Positions 1 through 11,600 of a stretch of DNA of 32,000 nt are shown piece after piece. The stretch is from NCBI RefSeq assembly GCF_043950625.1, contig NZ_CP171007.1; one strand, written 5' to 3'. Each line of letters opens with the position of its first letter. Position 1 is the first letter of the stretch. Below the pieces are notes generated by a model. The model did not search any database. It was not told where the DNA came from and worked only from the letters and a program-made list of their open reading frames with translations. The translations under genes were made by a program, and so were the position numbers. The DNA is from Alkanindiges sp. WGS2144. Lineage in GTDB: Bacteria; Pseudomonadota; Gammaproteobacteria; Pseudomonadales; Moraxellaceae.

Positions 1-3000
1 GCCTACATGGCAGTGAACACGGTTTTATTATGCTGATGTTTGCAGTCTTTTTTCTAAGCTGCCTACATGGCAGTGAACAACCCGCCCTGCCATGGCGGGG
101 CATCCTTTGATTTCTAAGCTGCCTACATGGCAGTGAACACGGAGGCAACCTTCAAGGAGTTGGTTGTCGAGTTTCTAAGCTGCCTACATGGCAGTGAACC
201 ATTGCTTCATACTGATCCTTCCACACGCCATTTTCTAAGCTGCCTACATGGCAGTGAACTCCCAATCCAAACCTTTGAAGAAGGTGCGCAATTTCTAAGC
301 TGCCTACATGGCAGTGAACTCCATAAAAATTCACAAGAATTTTCATTACATTTTCTAAGCTGCCTACATGGCAGTGAACATTTTAAAATTGGCTTCTGCC
401 CTATTTTGTGCTTTCTAAGCTGCCTACATGGCAGTGAACGGATGGCAAATCTGAAACAAAGGGGGATTCTAATTTCTAAGCTGCCTACATGGCAGTGAAC
501 AAGAGCCACTAACCAGCCCCCTAACTGGTATTTTTCTAAGCTGCCTACATGGCAGTGAACCGCCCTGCGTTGTTCTGATGTAGCCTTCAGCATTTCTAAG
601 CTGCCTACATGGCAGTGAACGCAGCACAGCGATTGAGCAAGGTTTTGCTGATTTTCTAAGCTGCCTACATGGCAGTGAACAATTTAAACCCCGCGTCATG
701 TCGGTAATGTCATTTCTAAGCTGCCTACATGGCAGTGAACTTCGCAAACAACATCAAAAACGAGATTTGTAGCTTTCTAAGCTGCCTACATGGCAGTGAA
801 CATACGGTAGTAGCTTGCTTATTACCACCAGATTTTCTAAGCTGCCTACATGGCAGTGAACCAATCGTGACGGTACGAATGCGGTGCTTTAATTTTCTAA
901 GCTGCCTACATGGCAGTGAACGTCCAGCCCTCTTTCCCGGTTACTCCTTTTTTTTTCTAAGCTGCCTACATGGCAGTGAACAGTGGAGCGGGGCTGCGGG
1001 GTCTATGTAATCATTTCTAAGCTGCCTACATGGCAGTGAACAGGGTTTTGAACTTGCCGCGCTGAATGGCTGGTTTCTAAGCTGCCTACATGGCAGTGAA
1101 CGGGTGGTCGCCTTTTAAGTGGTCACTTTCGTTTTTCTAAGCTGCCTACATGGCAGTGAACCTTGCTTGCAACAAGGCTTCTAGTTCTTCTTTTTTCTAA
1201 GCTGCCTACATGGCAGTGAACTGCTTGGCATTGATGATCTGGCCGATCTTCATTTTCTAAGCTGCCTACATGGCAGTGAACAAACTGAACCTTTCCTTCG
1301 TTGATAGCTTCAATTTCTAAGCTGCCTACATGGCAGTGAACGAACCTTTTACGGCATAAGCATTTGGCCCAGCTTTCTAAGCTGCCTACATGGCAGTGAA
1401 CTAGCAGGACGTATTGGGCGACCTGTAAATAAATTTCTAAGCTGCCTACATGGCAGTGAACTTGCTCAAATTCTGCAAAATCGTCAGGGTTCGTTTCTAA
1501 GCTGCCTACATGGCAGTGAACCACTGAAGGCATATTCGACACCATTGCCCTATTTTCTAAGCTGCCTACATGGCAGTGAACCACTGAAGGCATATTCGAC
1601 ACCATTGCCCTATTTTCTAAGCTGCCTACATGGCAGTGAACTGTCCAGCTGCTGGATAGTGATGGTTTCAAAATTTCTAAGCTGCCTACATGGCAGTGAA
1701 CCATTACCACCTGGTTTGCGCCCATAGGTACCTTTTCTAAGCTGCCTACATGGCAGTGAACTTCTTACGAACAAATCAGGGCATTGCTACAGCTTTCTAA
1801 GCTGCCTACATGGCAGTGAACATATTAGTATCAATATCAATTGCTCTTTGCGTTTTCTAAGCTGCCTACATGGCAGTGAACTGCGACCCAAGTATCAGCT
1901 TGATTATTATGATTTTCTAAGCTGCCTACATGGCAGTGAACTTGTTCTGACTGGCTCATCACACTTTCCTTCTTTTCTAAGCTGCCTACATGGCAGTGAA
2001 CTGTGCGCTCTTTTTCCCGGTACTCATCGACCATTTCTAAGCTGCCTACATGGCAGTGAACTTTGGAGTGGGGGGCGGCATACACGCGGTTATTTTCTAA
2101 GCTGCCTACATGGCAGTGAACAAATGCTGCCTAACGACGTGGAATTTCAGGCTTTTCTAAGCTGCCTACATGGCAGTGAACCCAGACAAAAATCCATTAG
2201 CTGGTCGTAAGCATTTCTAAGCTGCCTACATGGCAGTGAACATGGCATCAAGCAGCGGTGTAATCAGCTTGGTTTTCTAAGCTGCCTACATGGCAGTGAA
2301 CATTCCAGATCCGCACGTTGAGCAGGTGTAAGCTTTCTAAGCTGCCTACATGGCAGTGAACTTTTGTCAGTGGTCGGTTTGCTCGGCTTGTCCTTTCTAA
2401 GCTGCCTACATGGCAGTGAACAAGCTGGTTTGCCTTTGCCTGACATGGAACATTTTCTAAGCTGCCTACATGGCAGTGAACGTGCCCTCATCATCGCGTG
2501 GTGGATTCTCATTTTTCTAAGCTGCCTACATGGCAGTGAACGCGTGTTGGGCTGATCGTTCACATTCGTTGTGTTTCTAAGCTGCCTACATGGCAGTGAA
2601 CCAGGTTAAGGCCCTAGGCGGTGAAGTCCGCAATTTCTAAGCTGCCTACATGGCAGTGAACAGCTGGGTCATTGTTTTCTGGTGCGTGATCCATTTCTAA
2701 GCTGCCTACATGGCAGTGAACCGTGCCAAACACCTTTGATGTTCTGAACTGTTTTTCTAAGCTGCCTACATGGCAGTGAACGCCACCATCGGTAAGTTTT
2801 ACAATTTTCTCTTTTTCTAAGCTGCCTACATGGCAGTGAACGCCCCTATGAATTTAACTATTGCCTGCTATCTTTTCTAAGCTGCCTACATGGCAGTGAA
2901 CTACGTGTTAAACCGGCCTTACTGGTTTTGTTTTTTCTAAGCTGCCTACATGGCAGTGAACTTCTAAATAAAACACTATTACCGCCAATTAAGTTTCTAA

Positions 3001-3982
3001 GCTGCCTACATGGCAGTGAACTGCAAACATAGCACCGCATAACAATGGTGATTTTTCTAAGCTGCCTACATGGCAGTGAACATTCAGTACCAATATCTTT
3101 TGTTTTCTTGTTATTTCTAAGCTGCCTACATGGCAGTGAACGGTCTTTAGGCACACAGTTATAATTACCGCTATTTCTAAGCTGCCTACATGGCAGTGAA
3201 CTTCTTGTTTTGTCGCGGAGCAAGATTTTAGCGGTTTCTAAGCTGCCTACATGGCAGTGAACAACCATCTTGGTATTGTTGAAGGTGAGCGCGGTTTCTA
3301 AGCTGCCTACATGGCAGTGAACTGGGATCGTTAGGGTCTTTGGGTGGATTGTTATTTCTAAGCTGCCTACATGGCAGTGAACAAAAGCAAAGCGGTAATG
3401 AGAGGGGGGAAGTATTTCTAAGCTGCCTACATGGCAGTGAACAGTTCGGGTAGGATTGGTTGTTGCTCTACCCATTTCTAAGCTGCCTACATGGCAGTGA
3501 ACACGCAGGCCAAGCCTTAATGGCGTGGTGTGTTTTTCTAAGCTGCCTACATGGCAGTGAACATAGTAGTAAAGATTTTGGGCAGGCCGCATTTTTTCTA
3601 AGCTGCCTACATGGCAGTGAACATGAGATTAAGGCCTTTTTTGATGCACACAAATTTCTAAGCTGCCTACATGGCAGTGAACGAAGGAAACCTGCCGGAC
3701 AGCCTACAACTACATTTCTAAGCTGCCTACATGGCAGTGAACTTGTGTTTTTGGCGCTAACTTTTCGACTGGCTTTTCTAAGCTGCCTACATGGCAGTGA
3801 ACTTTTACCTGCAAAAACATCAGAGCGATTAAACTTTCTAAGCTGCCTACATGGCAGTGAACCCCAAACCAAGTAAGGCAGCACGACGGTTAATTTTCTA
3901 AGCTGCCTACATGGCAGTGAACGTGGGTTATTGGGATCGTTAGGGTCTTTGGGTTTTCTAAGCTGCCTACATGGCAGTGAAC
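1..3982 (-). CRISPR. Type I-F CRISPR array: 67 repeats (the first is truncated by the window edge) and 66 spacers; the array continues beyond position 1
   Basis: The 28-nt repeat reads TTTCTAAGCTGCCTACATGGCAGTGAAC on the + strand, which is GTTCACTGCCATGTAGGCAGCTTAGAAA on the - strand. This is the classic I-F repeat with the CTGCC/GGCAG Cas6f hairpin. The period is 60 bp (28+32), with four 33-nt spacers at 139-171, 440-472, 741-773 and 3202-3234. All visible repeats are identical. Orientation is set by the adjacent minus-strand cas operon and leader. Confidence 0.98.
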
Positions 3983-4114: not shown

Positions 4115-4705
4115 TCAAAACTCGGGAACACTAGATTCCGAGCTTAATCCATAGGTGCTAAAAACCTGACTGGCAGATTGTTCAGCAGGCTGCTTTTCAA
4201 TAAACAATTTAAACGGCTGAGCACTGGTTAGACTTTTTAGCTGAATAAATGGCAAGTCTGAGGTGGTTACTACGTTCTGATAGCGGCTTAAGGCTTCATC
4301 AAAATCAATATCACCCCGTTTTACTCGATGGCGTGCCAACCGTTCAGCATTGGTTTTAGGCTGTTTGCGTTTAAAGCAGGCATAACCTGTAATCTTTTCC
4401 TCAGGTACTGGGCGAATAGATGTGATATGCACATAATCCGTAAGCCGTTCCAGCCATTTTTTGATGTTGAGCTGATCTAGCTCATTTTCGGTTTGGGAAA
4501 ACAGCCGAAGCTTTGTGCCAAGAAAGCCTATTTTCTTTTCTGGATTAAACTGATACTGCGGAAAAGAAACTCCAATGCTTACTTTGTCATCAGCGTTTTT
4601 TATCTCGGCAAGCGCGAGGTGTAATTGCTGGTACAGCTTTGACCATAGAAAATACGTGGGTGCATCCTCTTGCGGTAAAAGCGTGAGTTCAATGTAAAAG
4701 GCCAT
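4115..4705 (-). CDS. cas6f: Cas6f/Csy4 crRNA endoribonuclease (196 aa)
   Basis: Last gene of the csy operon, next to the leader. It is collinear with Pseudomonas Csy4 as I remember it (IGVSFP, NxERLxRR, LPFxxLxSxS..F.LFI, YGLS...VPxF). Its start overlaps the csy3 stop (TAATG). Confidence 0.95.
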   Translation of the reverse strand: MAFYIELTLLPQEDAPTYFLWSKLYQQLHLALAEIKNADDKVSIGVSFPQYQFNPEKKIGFLGTKLRLFSQTENELDQLNIKKWLERLTDYVHITSIRPVPEEKITGYACFKRKQPKTNAERLARHRVKRGDIDFDEALSRYQNVVTTSDLPFIQLKSLTSAQPFKLFIEKQPAEQSASQVFSTYGLSSESSVPEF

Positions 4706-5748
4706 TACTTATCACTCTCACCAAAGACCCCGCCACGAACTAAAATAGCCATGACATAATGCTGCTGTTCAATTTCAGGAATCTTGCCCTCATTAACCCA
4801 GGCATCAAAAAGACTATAGAAATCTTTTTTGTCTGCAGGCTGGCGATAAGCACGTCCTTCCGAGGTTACAGAACCATATGGTTCAACCGCGATAGGTTTA
4901 CTTGCCTCGGGATACCAGTTATCGATAGTGCGTAAGGCATTACCAATTTTCTGCGAGTGGATACCCGCGTCTTTATCTTTAATTTTGTACAGGGTTTTAC
5001 TTTTTGCACCTTTAGTATTTCCACCTGACAGTATAAGTTCCTGGGATGGATAAACTTCCTGTCCCTCACCTAAACGAGCAAAGCCAATAACCCGCAATAA
5101 AACATGCTCATTACCAGTTAAACCTGCCTGAATCCAGCTGGATAATTGCTCCAAAGCTGGCGCTTGCTGGCTGTCTACCGCCACGTCATTTAAACGGTTT
5201 GCCAGTGCATCAAAATTCAAAGTTTCTTTTGGTTGTCCGTCAACAATACGAGCGACAGCTACGCTGACATTTTCAGCACCAATCCGGTTACGCCATAAAA
5301 ATCGGCCATTGGCTAAATTAACTGAATAACGTCTAGCCAATTCATAAAACTGATTTTCTGTCTTGTAGCTTGATACCACATTATTAAGACGCTCAGCAAA
5401 ACTTTCATTATTACAAGCGGATGGTTGCCCTACGTTAGGCAACACCCGAAGTGTAAAAGTCACTGCAACTGTATCCTTGCCCTGCGGTAACGCTGCAACA
5501 TCAACCGTTTGTAAATTTGGTTTTTCCACTGCTGCGTTAATATAGGCAGGGTCAATTTCCTTACTACTCTTAGGACGGTTAGAGATTGTTCCGCGTACTG
5601 ATTTTTCCTCAACCTGGATTGCAATAGCTCCCTCACCCTGTGAAATATCATTCCAGTTTACGGCGGTCATACGGCCATCTGACGGATCTAAATGACGGTT
5701 GAATGATAAAACAGACGCTGTTTTGATTTTTGCTGGTGCTTTAGCCAT
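4705..5748 (-). CDS. cas7f: Cas7f/Csy3 backbone subunit (347 aa)
   Basis: Position and size are typical for csy3, in a tightly packed operon. The ending ...ILVRGGVFG is typical of Csy3. Confidence 0.93.
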   Translation of the reverse strand: MAKAPAKIKTASVLSFNRHLDPSDGRMTAVNWNDISQGEGAIAIQVEEKSVRGTISNRPKSSKEIDPAYINAAVEKPNLQTVDVAALPQGKDTVAVTFTLRVLPNVGQPSACNNESFAERLNNVVSSYKTENQFYELARRYSVNLANGRFLWRNRIGAENVSVAVARIVDGQPKETLNFDALANRLNDVAVDSQQAPALEQLSSWIQAGLTGNEHVLLRVIGFARLGEGQEVYPSQELILSGGNTKGAKSKTLYKIKDKDAGIHSQKIGNALRTIDNWYPEASKPIAVEPYGSVTSEGRAYRQPADKKDFYSLFDAWVNEGKIPEIEQQHYVMAILVRGGVFGESDK

Positions 5749-5750
5749 GA

Positions 5751-6869
5751 TTAAATATCCTCTTCCTCTGAATCTGTAAATGAAAAATCAATTGATTGCA
5801 TATCTAAATCATCAAACGATGAGCTAGGAGCAGGTTGTGGCGCAAAAGGTTGAATGAGTGAATAGATACCCGCATCTGAATTTGGGTCATAAGCCCATAA
5901 AATATGAGTTAGGTCATCAATTCGGTGGGGGCTTTTCCATTCGCCCAAGCTAAGCAACGTTTCCGCAAAAGTCACTGGATATTGCTCATCACGCACGCCA
6001 GCTACAGAACCTGCCTCCAGCACATCAGTTAATGCACCATATCCAATTGGCACTGGAACTAGCCAGCCTTTTAAGTGAGCAGGTCGAGTGCGAAGCTCCC
6101 ATTTTCCTGATATAGGCTGATCGTGTTCAGTTTGCTCGCCTGCCTTTTGAACAGGACTACTGACTAAATTCAGACGGCTAATATCCAGTAGCGTGTCCAG
6201 TAAATCTGCTTCGCTACTCTGAGTTGCCAAGTAGGCTGGATGTTGGTTTAACCACTGTTGATGAGCCATGAGTACATCATGCCGATGAATTAAGGCAAAA
6301 CCAGGAAGCAAGTAACGGCGCAATTTTTTAGTTATCTCCGTGGCTTTAGCCTGTGACCAATTGACCAGTCTGGGTCTCACGCGTTGATGGGGCAAAATCA
6401 CTCCACCTGCCAGGCGCATCCCATAGACAAGCTGGTTAAGTTTGGCGAGTAAGTTTTGGGTTTGTGCATTTAACTCCACATCATTAGCAGATAAATGACT
6501 GTCCAGCGTGTCACCCGTCAGACCAATAACCAGACTGACCTCCATATGACCCTTACCTTCTTCTACCAGCGCTGGTGTAGAACCATTAGCTTCTAGCGGA
6601 GGGCGAGCCAAATTTAACTGATACGGTGTATAACGATACTCACTGGTTTTAGTCACTTGCGGCAGGAACTGATGGCAAATAATACCAATACCACAGCATT
6701 TAATAGCTTGATAATCATTAATAGCATTTAGCTTGCGTTGTAATGCATGCGCAAAACCTGTAAAAGCACTCGGTGCAGGAAAACCCCAAGTAAGATGACT
6801 GCTAATAATTGACGCATTTTCAATCTGTAAACGTACAAGATAAAGCGCTTTAGGATATGCATAAGTCAT
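5751..6869 (-). CDS. cas5f: Cas5f/Csy2 (372 aa) with an unusual acidic C-terminal tail
   Basis: Operon position between csy1 and csy3. It is about 45 aa longer than the ~327-aa Pseudomonas Csy2, and the extra length ends in ...FDDLDMQSIDFSFTDSEEEDI. Confidence 0.88.
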   Translation of the reverse strand: MTYAYPKALYLVRLQIENASIISSHLTWGFPAPSAFTGFAHALQRKLNAINDYQAIKCCGIGIICHQFLPQVTKTSEYRYTPYQLNLARPPLEANGSTPALVEEGKGHMEVSLVIGLTGDTLDSHLSANDVELNAQTQNLLAKLNQLVYGMRLAGGVILPHQRVRPRLVNWSQAKATEITKKLRRYLLPGFALIHRHDVLMAHQQWLNQHPAYLATQSSEADLLDTLLDISRLNLVSSPVQKAGEQTEHDQPISGKWELRTRPAHLKGWLVPVPIGYGALTDVLEAGSVAGVRDEQYPVTFAETLLSLGEWKSPHRIDDLTHILWAYDPNSDAGIYSLIQPFAPQPAPSSSFDDLDMQSIDFSFTDSEEEDI

Positions 6870-8210
6870 TTAGGCAAATTCCTCTTTAAGCAGTCGTAAT
6901 TTTTCTCGCAAGGCCAATGACCACACTCGTGCTTCAGCATCATCCAAGTCTTGTAACTTGCCTCGAGTAGTTAGAATCTTGTTCAGCCAAGTACCAAAGT
7001 TATAACCAACCTCAGTGTGCCAGTCACGTTCCCGATATGCTTCAAGCCACTCTTGCTCTTCTTTGGTTAGCTCACCCCGATCCTCCTTGATAAATAATTC
7101 TTCCCGATAGCCCCGATCTAGCCAAAAACTTTCCACGCGATTAAAATCTCGGCTTTTCTCCATTGTCCAGCCTGTAGTAGCACTTTGCTGAAGCTCAAGG
7201 CTCATATCAACAACGCAATCAGTGAGTTGCTCAACCAAATCGTCACGCTTTTTCCGAAACTCGCTATTATTTACACCATATTCATGACGATACATATGGA
7301 CAATAGCACCTAACAGTGGCTTCACATCTTTGCGATTACCAAGGTAACCCGTAAATACAGAACCCGACTTTGGTAGCTCTACAATCTGCCCCTGCCATAC
7401 GGGTGGCAGCGACGGCAATAACCACATAGCACCACGACGGTCACTATTAAGCTGCGAAATATTCTGCGGTTTTGATCCACCATAGTTGTGAATTAGCAAA
7501 CCAGGATACTCCCGACTTTCCTGCTCTCTGTGCAATTTTTTAAAACGTGCCTCGCGTAATACCTTGCTTTCTTCACTAAAACGATCGCTCAGGATATTTT
7601 GATAAGCACGATGCACCAGAGCACTCGGGTATAAAAGTACTAATACATGATAGCCGTCTTTTTCTACAGGAAAATAAACCTGCTTGGATAAGCGCCCAGC
7701 ATTCAATTGAGCAGGCGCTTTACTAAACGCCAAAAACCGCTGGTAACGGATGTGTGCTTGCTCAGATTGGTTTGCTAACGCAGCAATAAAATCAGCATCT
7801 GCTTTTAATAAGTGCTCAAGCAAGGAAACGTCGTTAAACTTTTGACGCAATAGTTTAAACACATCCAGAACCGCAGCATTACCAATCACGTCAGGTTCAA
7901 GGCTCAGGCCTTGCGAACCGATATAATCATGGGTCTTCTGTGCTTCAGAATAAAACATAGCAGATGCTTTAGAGTTTGGATGATGCTGCTTCGGTGTATG
8001 CGTTGCCAGTCGAATTTGACTGATACGCAGACTGGCCTCTTCCAGCCAGGTTTCAACATCATATTTTTCTAAAAGCTTTTCACGTTCTGCCGTATCCTCT
8101 GGCTTGAGCTTATCGAGTTTTTCGTTTAACCGACTCTGGATATATTGCTCAATCACTGCTCGAATAGTGGGCGGTGGAGAACCTGCTATCTCTTCTTTTG
8201 CATTTGACAT
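6870..8210 (-). CDS. cas8f: Cas8f/Csy1 large subunit (about 446 aa from the ATG at 8210; the ORF track extends to a TTG at 8222)
   Basis: Collinear with Pseudomonas Csy1 motifs (KLDKLxPED, GNAAxLDVFK, KQxYFP, GGxKPQNISQLN, WLLPSLPP). The true start is uncertain (8210 ATG or 8222 TTG). Confidence 0.92.
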   Translation of the reverse strand: MSNAKEEIAGSPPPTIRAVIEQYIQSRLNEKLDKLKPEDTAEREKLLEKYDVETWLEEASLRISQIRLATHTPKQHHPNSKASAMFYSEAQKTHDYIGSQGLSLEPDVIGNAAVLDVFKLLRQKFNDVSLLEHLLKADADFIAALANQSEQAHIRYQRFLAFSKAPAQLNAGRLSKQVYFPVEKDGYHVLVLLYPSALVHRAYQNILSDRFSEESKVLREARFKKLHREQESREYPGLLIHNYGGSKPQNISQLNSDRRGAMWLLPSLPPVWQGQIVELPKSGSVFTGYLGNRKDVKPLLGAIVHMYRHEYGVNNSEFRKKRDDLVEQLTDCVVDMSLELQQSATTGWTMEKSRDFNRVESFWLDRGYREELFIKEDRGELTKEEQEWLEAYRERDWHTEVGYNFGTWLNKILTTRGKLQDLDDAEARVWSLALREKLRLLKEEFA

Positions 8211-8267
8211 AGGATTTCTCAAAACTTGTTTTACAAAGTGAGTTATTTTTTAAAACAATTATTTGTT

Positions 8268-8458
8268 ATCATCTACGACAGTTTAACCATCGTAGATGAT
8301 GTTGGTTACCCAACTGTTCATACTATTATGCGCAGATGTTTGCCAAGCATCGTTTCCTCCTTACCCTATCGGGTGATGTGTGATCTCCCCAGATCGGTGG
8401 TTAAGCCCATTAAAGATGTAGTCTTTAATAAAATTCTTATGAATTACTCATAGGTGAT
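8268..8458 (-). ncRNA. Candidate CreT-like small RNA or csy-operon leader: 5' UTR, perfect SD, 10-codon mini-ORF (MLGKHLRIIV) with tandem AUA codons, then an 11-bp stem-loop
   Basis: On the minus strand: TAAGGAGG at 8363-8356, a 5-nt spacer, and ATG at 8350-8348. The ORF is atg ctt ggc aaa cat ctg cgc ATA ATA gta tga, with the stop at 8320-8318. A perfect inverted repeat ATCATCTACGA/TCGTAGATGAT lies at 8268-8278/8290-8300 with an 11-nt loop, 17 nt after the stop. The 5' end is inferred from the predicted promoter and the 3' end from the stem-loop. There is no expression evidence. Confidence 0.45.
8434..8454 (-). promoter_or_regulatory. Putative Csy-complex binding site (CC PAM plus a partially matching protospacer for the mini-CRISPR spacer), at about +5 to +25 of the predicted promoter
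   Basis: The minus strand reads CC|TATGAGTAATTCATAAGAA, compared with the psi-spacer TATGATCAATTAAACTCTT. Positions 1-5, 8-11 and 13 match. Two of the three proximal mismatches fall at positions 6 and 12, which are flipped out in type I complexes. Positions 14-19 do not match. Confidence 0.5.
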
Positions 8459-8464
8459 CAACTC

Positions 8465-8493
8465 AATATGAACTGGTTTTGTTCTCTTGACAA
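8465..8493 (-). promoter_or_regulatory. Predicted sigma70 promoter reading toward the mini-ORF and cas8f
   Basis: On the minus strand: TTGTCA (8493-8488), 17 nt, CATATT (8470-8465). The predicted TSS is about 8458. Confidence 0.45.
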
Positions 8494-8506
8494 GACCATT
8501 TACACT
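8479..8506 (+). promoter_or_regulatory. Weak candidate promoter for the crRNA-like gene
   Basis: TTGTTC (8479-8484), 16 nt, TACACT (8501-8506). This would start transcription at about 8513, just at psiR1. The match to consensus is poor. Confidence 0.25.
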
Positions 8507-8513
8507 ATTTTTT

Positions 8514-8588
8514 CTTCACTGTTGAGTAAACAGCTTAGAAATATGATCAATTAAACTCTTGTTCACTGCCATATAGGCAGCTTAGATT
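8514..8588 (+). ncRNA. Degenerate mini-CRISPR / crRNA-like gene (CreA- or CreR-type): psiR1 8514-8541, 19-nt spacer 8542-8560, psiR2 8561-8588. It is inverted relative to the cas operon and the main array
   Basis: psiR2 is GTTCACTGCCATATAGGCAGCTTAGATT, 25/28 identical to the array repeat (one change in the loop, two at the 3' end). psiR1 is CTTCACTGTTGAGTAAACAGCTTAGAAA, 21/28 identical. It keeps the 8-nt 5' handle CTTAGAAA, and its stem is changed from CTGCC/GGCAG to CTGTT/AACAG, which is compensatory. Confidence 0.75.
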
Positions 8589-8625
8589 CTAGGCTTTATC
8601 AGGCTTAATCCCTGATAAAACCTAG
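8589..8625. other. 15-bp stem-loop (14/15 paired) straddling the cas2-3 stop codon
   Basis: CTAGGCTTTATCAGG (8589-8603) pairs with CCTGATAAAACCTAG (8611-8625). The 7-nt loop contains the cas2-3 stop (8605-8607). There is no U-tract on either strand. Confidence 0.4.
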
Positions 8626-11600
8626 CCAGTCATGGTATAACCATTTTTTGTTGTCCTGTAGCGTAGGCAAGTTCAGGCTTAAGTATCGACTACAATTATC
8701 CTGCCATTCATACTCTGATGAAGTTGTAACCAAATATTTGCTCAAAGCGTTTTCAGGCTTTTGGTTCGGCCAGCAGTGTATCTGCGGATTGACTTCAAGC
8801 TCTACTCTTCTCATTAGACTTTCTTTAAGCAGCCAATTACCTGTGTCCTGATTGTATTGCTGTAGTTGAAGTGATTGTTCTAGATGCTCTGCTCGTAATG
8901 CATGTAGGGATTCTGGCTGCGACTTTCTAAATTTACTCAAAGTTTGCAGAATACCTGTGTAATGAATGAGCGTGCTCCAGAAACTATAGGCAGGAAATTT
9001 TATGGGAGATAATTCACCAAATATTCTCATTTCTGGGCAGATTCCGTGCCCCAACAGTATGTGATGCATACGGTCATGCTCTAAATCCACCAGAGCTGGA
9101 TAACCAAATTTGTCATAATTTGCTTTCAAGTACATAGCTGGTGGCTGCTCTAACCTCGCAATTGCATCCAGCTGTTTAAAATGTGCCTTACGCAGTAAGC
9201 CATTGTCCACGCTATCATTGCGTGCTTTTAAAAAATGTCGATTGGGCAGAAACTTAAAACCCTCCGCTTCAAAACCAGGGCGCGAGAAACAGGCTTGTTG
9301 CGGATGCTTAAAGTGACGAATATTACTTTCCATTAAAAATACATTGGACTGTGCATAAGGCTCAGGTCGATGTCGTCGCGTACGCCCAGAAGTTTGTATG
9401 ATGGAACGCATGGATGAGGGCTCTAGAATCATCCAGTCATAGTCATGATCTCGTCCGACTTCGCATACTGGCGACGCCAAAACTAAAATAACGTGTTGTT
9501 GTTCTGGATATCGATTAAGCCAGCCTTGTACTAGTTGATGATCATGAGGCTGCTGTCCCTGATTACGGTCTAATAACTCATCCAGATATTTTTCAATATT
9601 TGCCCGAATTAATAGGGGAAACCGCGAATGATAAACACATAAATGAATACGAACATCTGGATCAATCTGCTGTTTTAATAATAGCTGTGCAATAGCAGCG
9701 AGTGGATCAATATTGGCAAAACGAACTAAACCAACGCTATATTGCTTGCCTGTTTTAGGATCCGTAATTGCATTTAAGTGATGGGCTTTTAGTGTTGTAG
9801 TGAGTATGTGCTGAGTAAAAATTTGCTCCCATTTCTCAGAAGAACTGATTTGCCTTGGCAATCCAACCCATTCTAGCGTGCGCCGATGAATTAAAGGGGC
9901 TTGTGCCTTTAAATAAGCCACACGATTTTTGGTAAATTTTCTATGGGCTTTTAAAAAAACAGGATTGGCTTCAGAGCTACTGATTGCGGTATTACAAGGG
10001 ATGACTTCATGACAAATACTTTTTTCATTTTCATCAAACCATGCGGCAATGATGGGCTGATTAGCCTGGGTGCGATGTGCATTATAAAATTTACGTCCTG
10101 AACTATAAGCCAGATATAAACCATTGATTTCAGCAGGTGTCAGGGTTGCAGAAGAAAGTAAAACCCGACTTCCCATTAAGCCTGCCCAATAAACCAGTCG
10201 CGCCAACGCATAATAATCTTCAGGTGAAAAATCATCGGGCTCATCAAAAACTAGATCCGAAGACATCAGGCGCAGCATGGGAGCAATCTGACGGCCACCA
10301 CGTGTACTCTCTGTGGCAGGAATCAGATGATCTATAGTGCAACATAAAATAGGGCTCATCAGCATTTTTTTGACTTGATGGTTACCCTTTAACCATTTGG
10401 CAAACAGATGATCAGCAGGTAGTATGCCTTCAAAGTCAATCTCAAGTTCGTCAAAATCAATATTAACTCCCTCTTCATAAAGTCCAGTCAAAGATTCTGA
10501 ACCCATGGTTTCAGCCAGTTCAGGATTAGTTTCGGGGTCAAAATTTTGCAGCTCTTCATCAATAATCTGGGCTGAAGTATTTTGACTGTACTGCTCAAAA
10601 ATTTCCTTAACTGCGCCACCACCTACCATAATGGCTAAATCAGTTTCATCCAGATTTAGGCGTTGACGTAAAGCCTTGCCTGTTTGCAAAGTTAAGGTGC
10701 GTAGGCCTAAAGCCACATTAAAACGTGCACCTTTCTCAGAGTCGGCCAGACCATACATGATGCGTGTATTCGCAAGCGTTTTACCTCGGCCTGTTGACGC
10801 TAAATTCACCCCGAAAAAGCCATGGTTTGGATAATTTTTCTGGATAAAGCGAGCTTCCTGATAAGATTTATCCTGCCACTTGTAATAGCTATTGTTGGTT
10901 TTACTTTCTAAACTTTTTTGTGGTGGTAAACGCTCAAATAGCTCATCCATGCGGGTAAAAGCGCCCATTAACTGCCGTACAGATTGACTTACGCCTATCA
11001 GATGATCATCTAAAGGCTGTTTTAGTTCACCCGTTTTATCTGTATTGGCATAACGCGTATAAGTCTTATCATGCCATTTTGGCGTTGGTTCACAGCTTGA
11101 ATAATAATGATCAGACAGCATTAAAGCCAAGCGGGAAATATGACTGATGTAAGGATCAGATAAATTTGGAGGGGAACCTGCTGGTATAAGCTGTTTGAGT
11201 TTTATCGCGCAACTATTTACCTCTTTACACCATGTTTTGCTATTAAAAGGGATATGTTTAGCTTCTATATTCCAGCACTGTTTGATTTCTTTTGCCCGAT
11301 TTTTATCATCTGCTTCGTAATGTCGTGGGTAACACCATTTGAAATTAAGCTCATCTAGCACAAAATCAAACTTTGCTAGAGAATAGTCCTTGTCTTGGCT
11401 TTTATCTTTACCCAGTAAATAGCTGGGTATAGGCAGTCGGTGATGAGAAACGATGAGCCACGCCACTATCTGAGCAATTTGCGGTAAGTCCTGAAATGGT
11501 GATAACAGGATAGCTTGATCAGGATGATCCTTAACCAGTGCCTCTAGCCAGACATAGTCTACGTTTTGAGGTGAAAGCGTGGTTAATTTTTCAATCCATG

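Follow-up and report, generated by a model that had tools for sequence, protein, structure and literature searches.

The closest described relatives of the locus reported here are the CRISPR-repressed toxin-antitoxin (CreTA) modules of Acinetobacter. That of Acinetobacter sp. WCHA45 has been dissected experimentally, and homologues occur in the cas3-csy1 gap of type I-F CRISPR-Cas loci (Wang et al., Nat Commun 2023, PMC10097628). We analysed a gap of this kind in a 32,000-nucleotide stretch of Alkanindiges sp. WGS2144 (contig NZ_CP171007.1), referred to below as the window, and focus on a short site flanked by a CC protospacer-adjacent motif (PAM), which is very probably the cognate DNA target of CreA, the guide RNA of a CreTA module lying between cas2-3 and csy1. 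In the modules of WCHA45, LoGeW2-3 and ANC3789 the gap is ~400 bp long, creA diverges from a Shine-Dalgarno (SD) sequence followed by a 33-bp creT mini-open reading frame (mini-ORF), and the creA guide segment (psiS) of each is a partial match to a CC-flanked site located downstream of the promoter of creT (PMC10097628). In WCHA45, mature CreA has handles of 8 nt at the 5' end and 20 nt at the 3' end; antitoxin function is gone without the Csy complex, reporter repression is gone without Csy4, and function is kept without Cas1 or Cas3 (PMC10097628). Repression of WCHA45 creT acts at the level of transcription, and the transcription start site (TSS) was mapped upstream of the target; a PAM mutant loses function and compensatory mutations in psiS and target rescue it (PMC10097628). 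Modules of this kind make cells depend on the CRISPR effector and punish its loss or its inhibition by anti-CRISPRs, and they have already been used to stabilise CRISPR antimicrobials against Acinetobacter. Derepression by anti-CRISPRs has been shown for the related CrePA module (bioRxiv 10.1101/2024.01.05.574328).

Three further groups of systems are relevant. In the archaeal CreTA modules (Haloarcula hispanica and Halobacterium hubeiense, type I-B), as far as the available accounts describe them, a degenerate mini-CRISPR RNA likewise guides Cascade to repress a small RNA toxin with a strong SD and a mini-ORF, and cells are addicted to the effector; these modules differ from ours in subtype, in lying near cas6, in having a canonical 11-bp seed and in a toxicity that works through tandem rare codons sequestering tRNA. 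In CreR and the I-F1 mini-arrays (Shmakov et al. 2023, bioRxiv 10.1101/2023.03.03.530964; Liu et al. 2023, bioRxiv 10.1101/2023.03.10.532045), as in the window, a guide is partly complementary, with a mismatch at every sixth position, to a site that lies next to a PAM at a promoter pointing towards csy1. The difference is that the window has a toxin-type mini-ORF between the repressed promoter and csy1. Finally, phage arrays of CreA and CreR mimics that silence creT or cas promoters have already been described (bioRxiv 10.1101/2024.10.29.618823; Shmakov et al. 2023), and the short guides of P. aeruginosa CreA and of Cracr RNAs have been shown to assemble Csy complexes with fewer Csy3 subunits (bioRxiv 10.1101/2024.10.29.618823).

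On the minus strand of the 382-bp cas2-3/csy1 gap of the window (8604-8223), TTGTCA (8493-8488) is followed by 17 nt, CATATT (8470-8465), the ten bases GAGTTGATCA, CC (8454-8453) and the protospacer-like target TATGAGTAATTCATAAGAA (8452-8434). The two hexamers (8465..8493) form the predicted creT promoter, which scores 9/12 in a consensus promoter scan and is the sole sigma-70-like minus-strand site called in 8100-8700. If transcription starts about 7 nt past the -10 hexamer, the TSS would lie at ~8458 and the PAM and target at about +5 to +25, with the CC located on the creT-sense (non-template) strand, 5' to the target. The guide, psiS (TATGATCAATTAAACTCTT; 8542..8560, plus strand; unique in the window), agrees with the target at positions 1-5, 8-11 and 13 and mismatches it at 6, 7, 12 and 14-19; all 10 pairs fall within positions 1-13 (8454-8440 including the PAM). 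Both the promoter just upstream of a CC-flanked site and this pairing pattern are exactly as an initial annotation, made from the sequence alone, had read them. Its description of the seed as intact was overstated, because position 7 is a pairing position and is mismatched here. The PAM-plus-seed pattern CCTATGANNAATT occurs once in the 32-kb window against an expectation of 0.01. When the 3382 CC-flanked sites in the window are scored by matches within positions 1-13, with 1-5 unbroken, the target ranks first. Shuffled versions of psiS equal its score inside the gap in 0.04-0.055% of 20000 trials, so that the rough chance estimate of 1e-4 to 1e-3 made in the initial annotation holds up at ~5e-4. 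A second, weaker CC-flanked match to psiS lies over the csy1 start codon (minus strand, 8213-8193; target from 8211), with TATG, then AAT, A and A, and with 8 of the 11 pairing positions within 1-13 matched. We rejected it as a functional second target: CCTATG is also present in a close relative, L046, whose guide is unrelated, and the match is therefore probably due to chance.

The guide is flanked on the plus strand by two repeats, both of which Rfam calls as CRISPR-DR4 in that orientation. The first (psiR1, 8514..8541; 31.2 bits, E = 5e-5) is degenerate, with 21/28 identities to the array repeat, but keeps the hairpin and the 8-nt 5' handle CTTAGAAA. The second (psiR2, 8561..8588; 38.4 bits, above the gathering score) is near-canonical, with 25/28 identities, and would supply the Cas6f hairpin and the 3' handle. 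By analogy with the sequenced CreA of WCHA45, mature CreA of the window is predicted to measure 8 + 19 + 20 = 47 nt. The -35 region of the creT promoter (window 8493-8479; L204 2220-2234; also L053) is an inverted repeat, reading TTGTCA-AAG-TGACAA in L204 and TTGCCA-AAG-TGGCAA in L053 and imperfect in the window; it may consist of back-to-back -35 boxes of divergent creT and creA promoters, or possibly of a protein-binding site.

Downstream of the target on the minus strand lies the creT core (8318..8362), with the SD AAGGAGG (8362-8356) and a 33-bp mini-ORF running from ATG at 8350 to TGA at 8318 (MLGKHLRIIV), which can be aligned with the mini-ORFs, likewise of 33 bp, of published family members. 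For the creT region (138 nt) we aligned the window with ten retrieved loci and with five sequences from the literature; identity to the window is 75% for WCHA45 and 95-96% for L046 and L047, and the consensus contains four hairpins with compensatory changes. Two of these are small and lie in the 5' leader (8363..8395), namely GATCT...AGATC (8395-8382) and ACCC-GATA-GGGT (8374-8363), the latter with compensatory pairs in the RNAalifold consensus of 15 homologues. Another is a 14-bp hairpin between creT and csy1 (8268..8300, minus strand), seen in the single-sequence fold as well as in the consensus; it is present in all 15 homologues, several of its pairs show compensatory changes, and no U-run comes after it. 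Its loop is conserved as TTAAA, with TTAAT or TCAAT in some homologues. The accessible text of PMC10097628 describes no role for this hairpin, which could act as a processing site, a stabiliser or an attenuator.

The mini-ORFs of the family end in either ...CGC ATA ATA GTA TGA or ...AGA AGG GTC TAA (window 8334-8313; alignment columns 72-93), and the two endings differ by CG<>UA compensatory changes at three pairs of a small hairpin that spans the stop codon. As the alignment reads, covariation in RNA structure accounts for what might pass as an exchange of rare Ile for rare Arg codons. The tandem ATA ATA (or AGA AGG) had been a candidate for a tRNA-sequestering signal of the archaeal style; we rejected it as the main signal, the differences being compensatory within the hairpin. 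The rare-codon reading is also disfavoured by the codons whose synonymous change abolished WCHA45 toxicity, which are the 2nd, 3rd and 5th (PMC10097628).

Judged by sequence, the window module belongs to the Acinetobacter type I-F CreTA family, because its creT region is 75% identical to that of WCHA45 and shares the four-hairpin consensus with compensatory changes. The two loci agree in CRISPR subtype, in position (a cas2-3/csy1 gap of ~400 bp in WCHA45 and 382 bp here), in a psiR1-psiS-psiR2 unit with an array-like psiR2 and a degenerate psiR1 that diverges from an SD and 33-bp mini-ORF, in a CC PAM and partial match just downstream of PcreT, and in the leader hairpins and the downstream 14-bp hairpin. 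They differ in the guide/target pair. Supplementary Data 2 of PMC10097628 lists 23 gaps with guides, targets, PAM and PAM strand; CC is the PAM in all 23, on either strand, and the listed guide classes begin TAGTT/TAGTC, TACTAATG, TACTACA or AGCTT, whereas that of the window begins TATGA. An exact-string search of the supplements of that paper for the window psiS, target and mini-ORF returned no match, and we therefore count the TATGA allele as absent from the 23 listed modules. The PAM is on the creT-sense strand, as in ANC3789 and Agitococcus but unlike WCHA45, and the pairing comprises 10 pairs with a mismatch at position 7, as compared with 17/20 in WCHA45. A search of plasmids with the gap found only the LoGeW2-3 and ANC 7970 plasmids, which match in the flank and in parts of creT. 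CreTA as a kind has been known since 2023, and the window adds a new guide/target allele to it. The suggestion in the initial annotation that the site is of the CreA/CreR type, with a CC PAM, PAM-proximal pairing only and the Csy complex parked on the promoter of the mini-ORF, is supported by this homology to an experimentally dissected module, and also by the conservation and the phage mimic described below.

Flanking DNA was fetched for twelve Csy1 homologues, and the TATGA guide class is present in two further host lineages, represented by L053/L054/L135 and by L203/L204, whose Csy1 proteins are 77% (L053/L054) and 76% (L203/L204) identical to that of the window. L135 is a metagenome contig with a gap identical to that of L053. 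It was the only relevant hit when metagenome contigs were searched with the loose pattern TCATATTTCTAAGCWRYYT, nearly all matches being ordinary I-F arrays with a spacer that starts TATGA. In a three-way alignment of the window, L053 and L204, the guide start and handle, the 17-nt promoter spacing, the -10 hexamer CATATT, the CC and target positions 1-9 (TATGAGTAA) are invariant. The -35 hexamer (TTGyCA) differs only at its fourth base, being TTGCCA in L053 and TTGTCA in L204, and the 9-10 nt between the -10 hexamer and the PAM are almost wholly different among the three. The guides (TATGATCAATTAAACTCTT in the window, TATGACTAATTAGG in L053 and TATGAATGATTCAAATTTTG in L204) all pair at positions 1-5, and each has one mismatch within 7-11, at position 7, 10 and 8, respectively; in L204 pairing reaches 15/20. 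When the different guides of ten loci were each compared with all ten gaps, a guide's own gap gave its best CC-flanked match in 8 rows. The initial annotation had asked whether the PAM and seed are kept where the mini-CRISPR is kept: in the three host lineages the hexamers of the promoter and their spacing are retained, as are the PAM and positions 1-9 of the target. A TATGA start is also found in an unrelated metagenome contig, L127 (Ga0247729_10000094; minus strand, ~7300-7420), where a three-repeat I-F-like mini-array has guides of ~12 and ~19 nt that both begin in this way.

A further line of evidence comes from phages. The viral collection (IMG/VR) was scanned for handle plus seed, giving 21 viral matches, of which 19 are unrelated and lack any repeat hairpin. 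The other two are phage contigs from different samples, L198 (IMGVR_UViG_3300027710_000050, from a 42-kb contig) and L184 (IMGVR_UViG_3300009419_000409), which have the same I-F mini-array region (260/260 bases compared). The array has three repeats and two guides (L198 4369-4530) in the order psiR, guide 1 AGCTTTCATGCTGAATTTACTTATTA, repeat GTTCACTACCGCACAGGTAGCTTAGAAA, guide 2 TATGAGTAATTAAACCTGATGC, psiR and terminator. Guide 1 is identical, at 26/26 positions, to the creA guide that PMC10097628 lists under Agitococcus lubricus. Guide 2 (TATGAGTAATTAAAC...) fits the window target at positions 1-11 and 13, that is, better than the host guide does. A phage guide of this kind is evidence, independent of the host loci, of a site that matters in nature: the target is a sequence that a phage has reason to hit. 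Guide 2 and the window psiS are also identical at positions 8-15 (AATTAAAC); because this stretch includes bases that are unpaired with the target, the identity points to common descent of the two guides. Nearby genes on the L198 contig encode a DnaC-like loader, TerS, TerL and, beside the array, a 66-aa helix-turn-helix (HTH) regulator. Copies of two host CreA classes next to an HTH gene and small ORFs agree with multi-guide Cracr arrays (bioRxiv 10.1101/2024.10.29.618823), a likeness that concerns the phage contigs and not the window. Two small ORFs (78 and 160 aa) flank the array and could be anti-CRISPR candidates. A search of phage GenBank with the gap gave no match.

These data suggest the following mechanism. 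The plus-strand mini-CRISPR would be transcribed and cut by Cas6f into a ~47-nt CRISPR RNA-like CreA, in which the 19-nt psiS is framed by the 8-nt handle CUUAGAAA and a hairpin handle of 20 nt. A shortened Csy complex loaded with CreA would recognise the CC PAM at 8454-8453 and open a partial R-loop on the template strand just downstream of the creT promoter; its 10 pairs would fall within positions 1-13, or roughly +7 to +19 of the transcript. The complex would act as a roadblock to RNA polymerase, and Cas2-3 would not be licensed to cut because the R-loop is incomplete. Once Csy is lost, mutated or inhibited by an anti-CRISPR, the promoter would be freed, and the RNA containing the leader and mini-ORF (creT), and probably the downstream csy genes, would be transcribed. 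Taken alone, the site can be called a cognate CreA target with slightly greater assurance than attaches to its place in the whole module; that it represses usefully in this strain is probable, at a clearly lower level of confidence.

Several observations weigh against this interpretation. The window allele has only 10 pairs and a mismatch at position 7. In WCHA45, a single mismatch at any of positions 2-5, 7-9 or 13-17 abolishes repression and position 7 is essential to the antitoxin (PMC10097628); the window allele is mismatched at 7 and at 14-17, which are among the positions so identified. No compensatory change is seen between lineages within positions 1-11, where each host guide has one mismatch, and the creT TSS at ~8458 is a prediction only. 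On the toxin side, WCHA45 toxicity requires a hairpin with the AUG in its stem (PMC10097628), centred in 5 bp and closed by a 7-nt loop. This hairpin is not predicted in the window, where the mini-ORF reads CTT GGC AAA CAT ... ATA ATA GTA TGA and C4 and A12 are unable to pair. Moreover, the creT homologue of ANC3789 is non-toxic in the test host A. baumannii AYE (PMC10097628). These points could be accommodated if the site were a decaying relic, with an eroded guide/target pairing, a creT that is no longer toxic and little or no remaining function. The WCHA45 mutation rules would then predict that repression was lost with the position-7 mismatch, the minimum-energy fold of the window creT without the 4-12 pair would mark a disabled toxin, and the perfect version of positions 1-11 in the phage guide suggests that the window psiS is derived. 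Several features speak against such decay. Three lineages share the promoter hexamers, the PAM and positions 1-9 of the target without change although the flanking sequence has diverged; no cas gene is broken, the array counts at least 66 repeats, and conservation, with covariation, extends to the SD, the mini-ORF and the four hairpins. A listed member of the family, A. haemolyticus HW-2A, and L055, which has the same guide, pair even less than the window does. If creT is toxic, loss of repression would be counter-selected, and the persistence of the module argues for adequate repression. Minimum-energy folding predicts the AUG hairpin for WCHA45 and L053 but for neither the window nor L047; several of the listed homologues vary at this feature as well, and it is a trait of the WCHA45 toxin mechanism and not of module membership. 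On balance we consider a decayed module unlikely, while the chances that creT of the window is toxic seem to us evenly divided. That a leftover repeat pair merely coincides with AT-rich intergenic DNA is very improbable. The pairing is short, the gap is AT-rich, and partial matches do arise, as the weaker 8/11 one over the csy1 start codon shows; however, the probability of ~5e-4 in the gap and the first rank among 3382 sites, the retention of the site in two other lineages, its mirroring by a phage guide and the homology of the module to an experimentally validated one all stand against coincidence, which is effectively refuted already by the site ranking, the guide-versus-gap test and the lineage conservation.

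The alternative that we take most seriously overlaps with the CreTA interpretation and does not exclude it. Here the main output would be autoregulation of the effector operon, as for CreR and the I-F1 mini-arrays: the promoter would effectively belong to csy1-4, creT would be a passenger in the leader and the dosage of Csy would be tuned. Regulatory mini-arrays that repress the cascade promoter have been validated in P. aeruginosa I-F1 (bioRxiv 10.1101/2023.03.03.530964; 10.1101/2023.03.10.532045), and relatives without creT, A. wuhouensis (L058/L059) and Acinetobacter sp. S40 (L051/L052), keep the mini-CRISPR and a CC-flanked target 18-26 nt upstream of the csy1 ATG. The mini-ORF of WCHA60 is listed as 'N/A' (PMC10097628). 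Consensus scans of the minus strand call no further promoter-like and no terminator-like site in the stretch from the target to csy1, and the 14-bp hairpin at 8300-8268 has no U-run; read-through from PcreT into csy1-4, with one promoter for both outputs, is for these reasons plausible. On the other hand, such scans are crude, the csy genes could be fed by read-through from cas2-3, and the conserved 14-bp hairpin could stop or process transcripts. The strong conservation of the mini-ORF and SD argues that creT itself is under selection, and co-transcription in the Acinetobacter CreTA family is not addressed in the accessible parts of the published accounts. Overall, autoregulation as the main output is a substantial possibility that falls a little short of an even chance. 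The creT-less loci of A. wuhouensis and S40 have a cas3-csy1 gap of ~200 bp and target matches of 16/20 and 13/19, respectively, in a CreR-like layout; they are close relatives of loci that do carry creT.

Returning to the CreTA module, comparison with L046 raises the possibility that its guide and target are exchanged together. Identity between the two loci is 94% in Csy1 and 95-98% over the stretch from creT to csy1, but from psiS to the target they are unrelated: L046 has the guide TAGCTGGCAATCCATAGTTT, and the PAM of its target is on the opposite strand, whereas the guide-promoter-target block of the window resembles those of L053 and L204. Because of this break between a near-identical creT-csy1 segment and an unrelated guide-target block, a block of ~190 bp, running from psiS through psiR1 and the divergent promoters to the target, may move as a unit between close relatives, with guide and target co-inherited. 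It is speculation that phage arrays of CreA mimics drive this exchange; the L198/L184 array copies the TATGA and AGCTT classes. That a single CreA-controlled promoter serves both the toxin RNA and csy1-4, and/or that cassettes of ~190 bp are exchanged, is only a tentative proposal. If the dual output is true, inhibition of Csy would raise effector synthesis and arm the toxin at once. The abrupt swap of guide and target between near-identical loci suggests that such safeguards diversify under phage pressure. The accepted picture is unchanged by the window allele; what is notable in it is the very short pairing with a mismatch at position 7, together with the possible exchange of guide/target cassettes and the possible dual output. 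The pairing is unusually short, with 10 pairs and, in the second segment of the guide, one mismatch; the allele is therefore a natural test of the minimum complementarity for a Csy roadblock. The target block of the window (8436-8454, plus strand) and that of L055/HW-2A (L055 creT-sense TTTTATGAATTACTGACTAGG) have TTATGAATTACT...TAGG in common, in opposite orientations relative to creT. The idea that the former is an inverted copy of a target of the minus-strand-PAM class, on the strength of the 12-nt TTATGAATTACT shared in reverse with L055, is unsupported: the local alignment score is 29, as compared with 14-20 for other loci, in AT-rich palindromic sequence.

The module is set in a complete Acinetobacter-type type I-F CRISPR-Cas locus, large array included, on the minus strand of the window. 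Upstream are cas1 (13136-12114; Pfam Cas_Cas1) and cas2-3 (12117-8605; Pfam Cas3_I-F_Cas2 and Cas3-like_C_2), and the gap is followed by csy1 (cas8f; 6870..8210, ATG at 8210; Pfam Cas_Csy1), csy2 (5751-6869; Pfam Csy2), csy3 (4705-5748; Pfam Csy3) and cas6f/csy4 (4115-4705; Pfam Csy4), both flanks of the gap being Pfam-confirmed as Cas2-3 and Csy1. Expectation values for Csy1, Csy2, Csy3 and Csy4 range from 5e-96 to 8e-133. The array itself (51..3982, minus strand; repeat search and Tandem Repeats Finder) contains at least 66 repeats of GTTCACTGCCATGTAGGCAGCTTAGAAA and extends past the window start; the repeat search found 66 copies, each with 1 mismatch to the query. Within it, Tandem Repeats Finder reports a duplicated spacer, 2.5 perfect copies of a 60-bp repeat-plus-spacer unit at 1494-1641. 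The nearest Csy1 proteins in the public collection are from Acinetobacter (best 94% identity; A. qingfengensis 80%, A. wuhouensis 72%), and no identical protein is on record there. Searching the genome-contig collection with Csy1 gave relatives at <=34% identity only, which is uninformative for the gap.

A few features of the surrounding genes deserve mention. An 8-bp hairpin at 8618-8596 (TTATCAGG...CCTGATAA) overlaps the cas2-3 stop codon of the window and is kept in relatives, with a compensatory change in L047 (TTATAAGG...CCTTATAA); it might terminate the creA transcript or the cas2-3 transcript. In the L053 lineage (L053, L054 1-2063; ENA ERZ27277503; Logan ERR3404744) cas2-3 is called as two ORFs, of 837 and 303-308 aa, and a BrnT/BrnA toxin-antitoxin pair lies between cas3 and the creTA module. 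Similarly, cas3 is split in L203 (1-2107), whereas in its sister contig L204 it is not.

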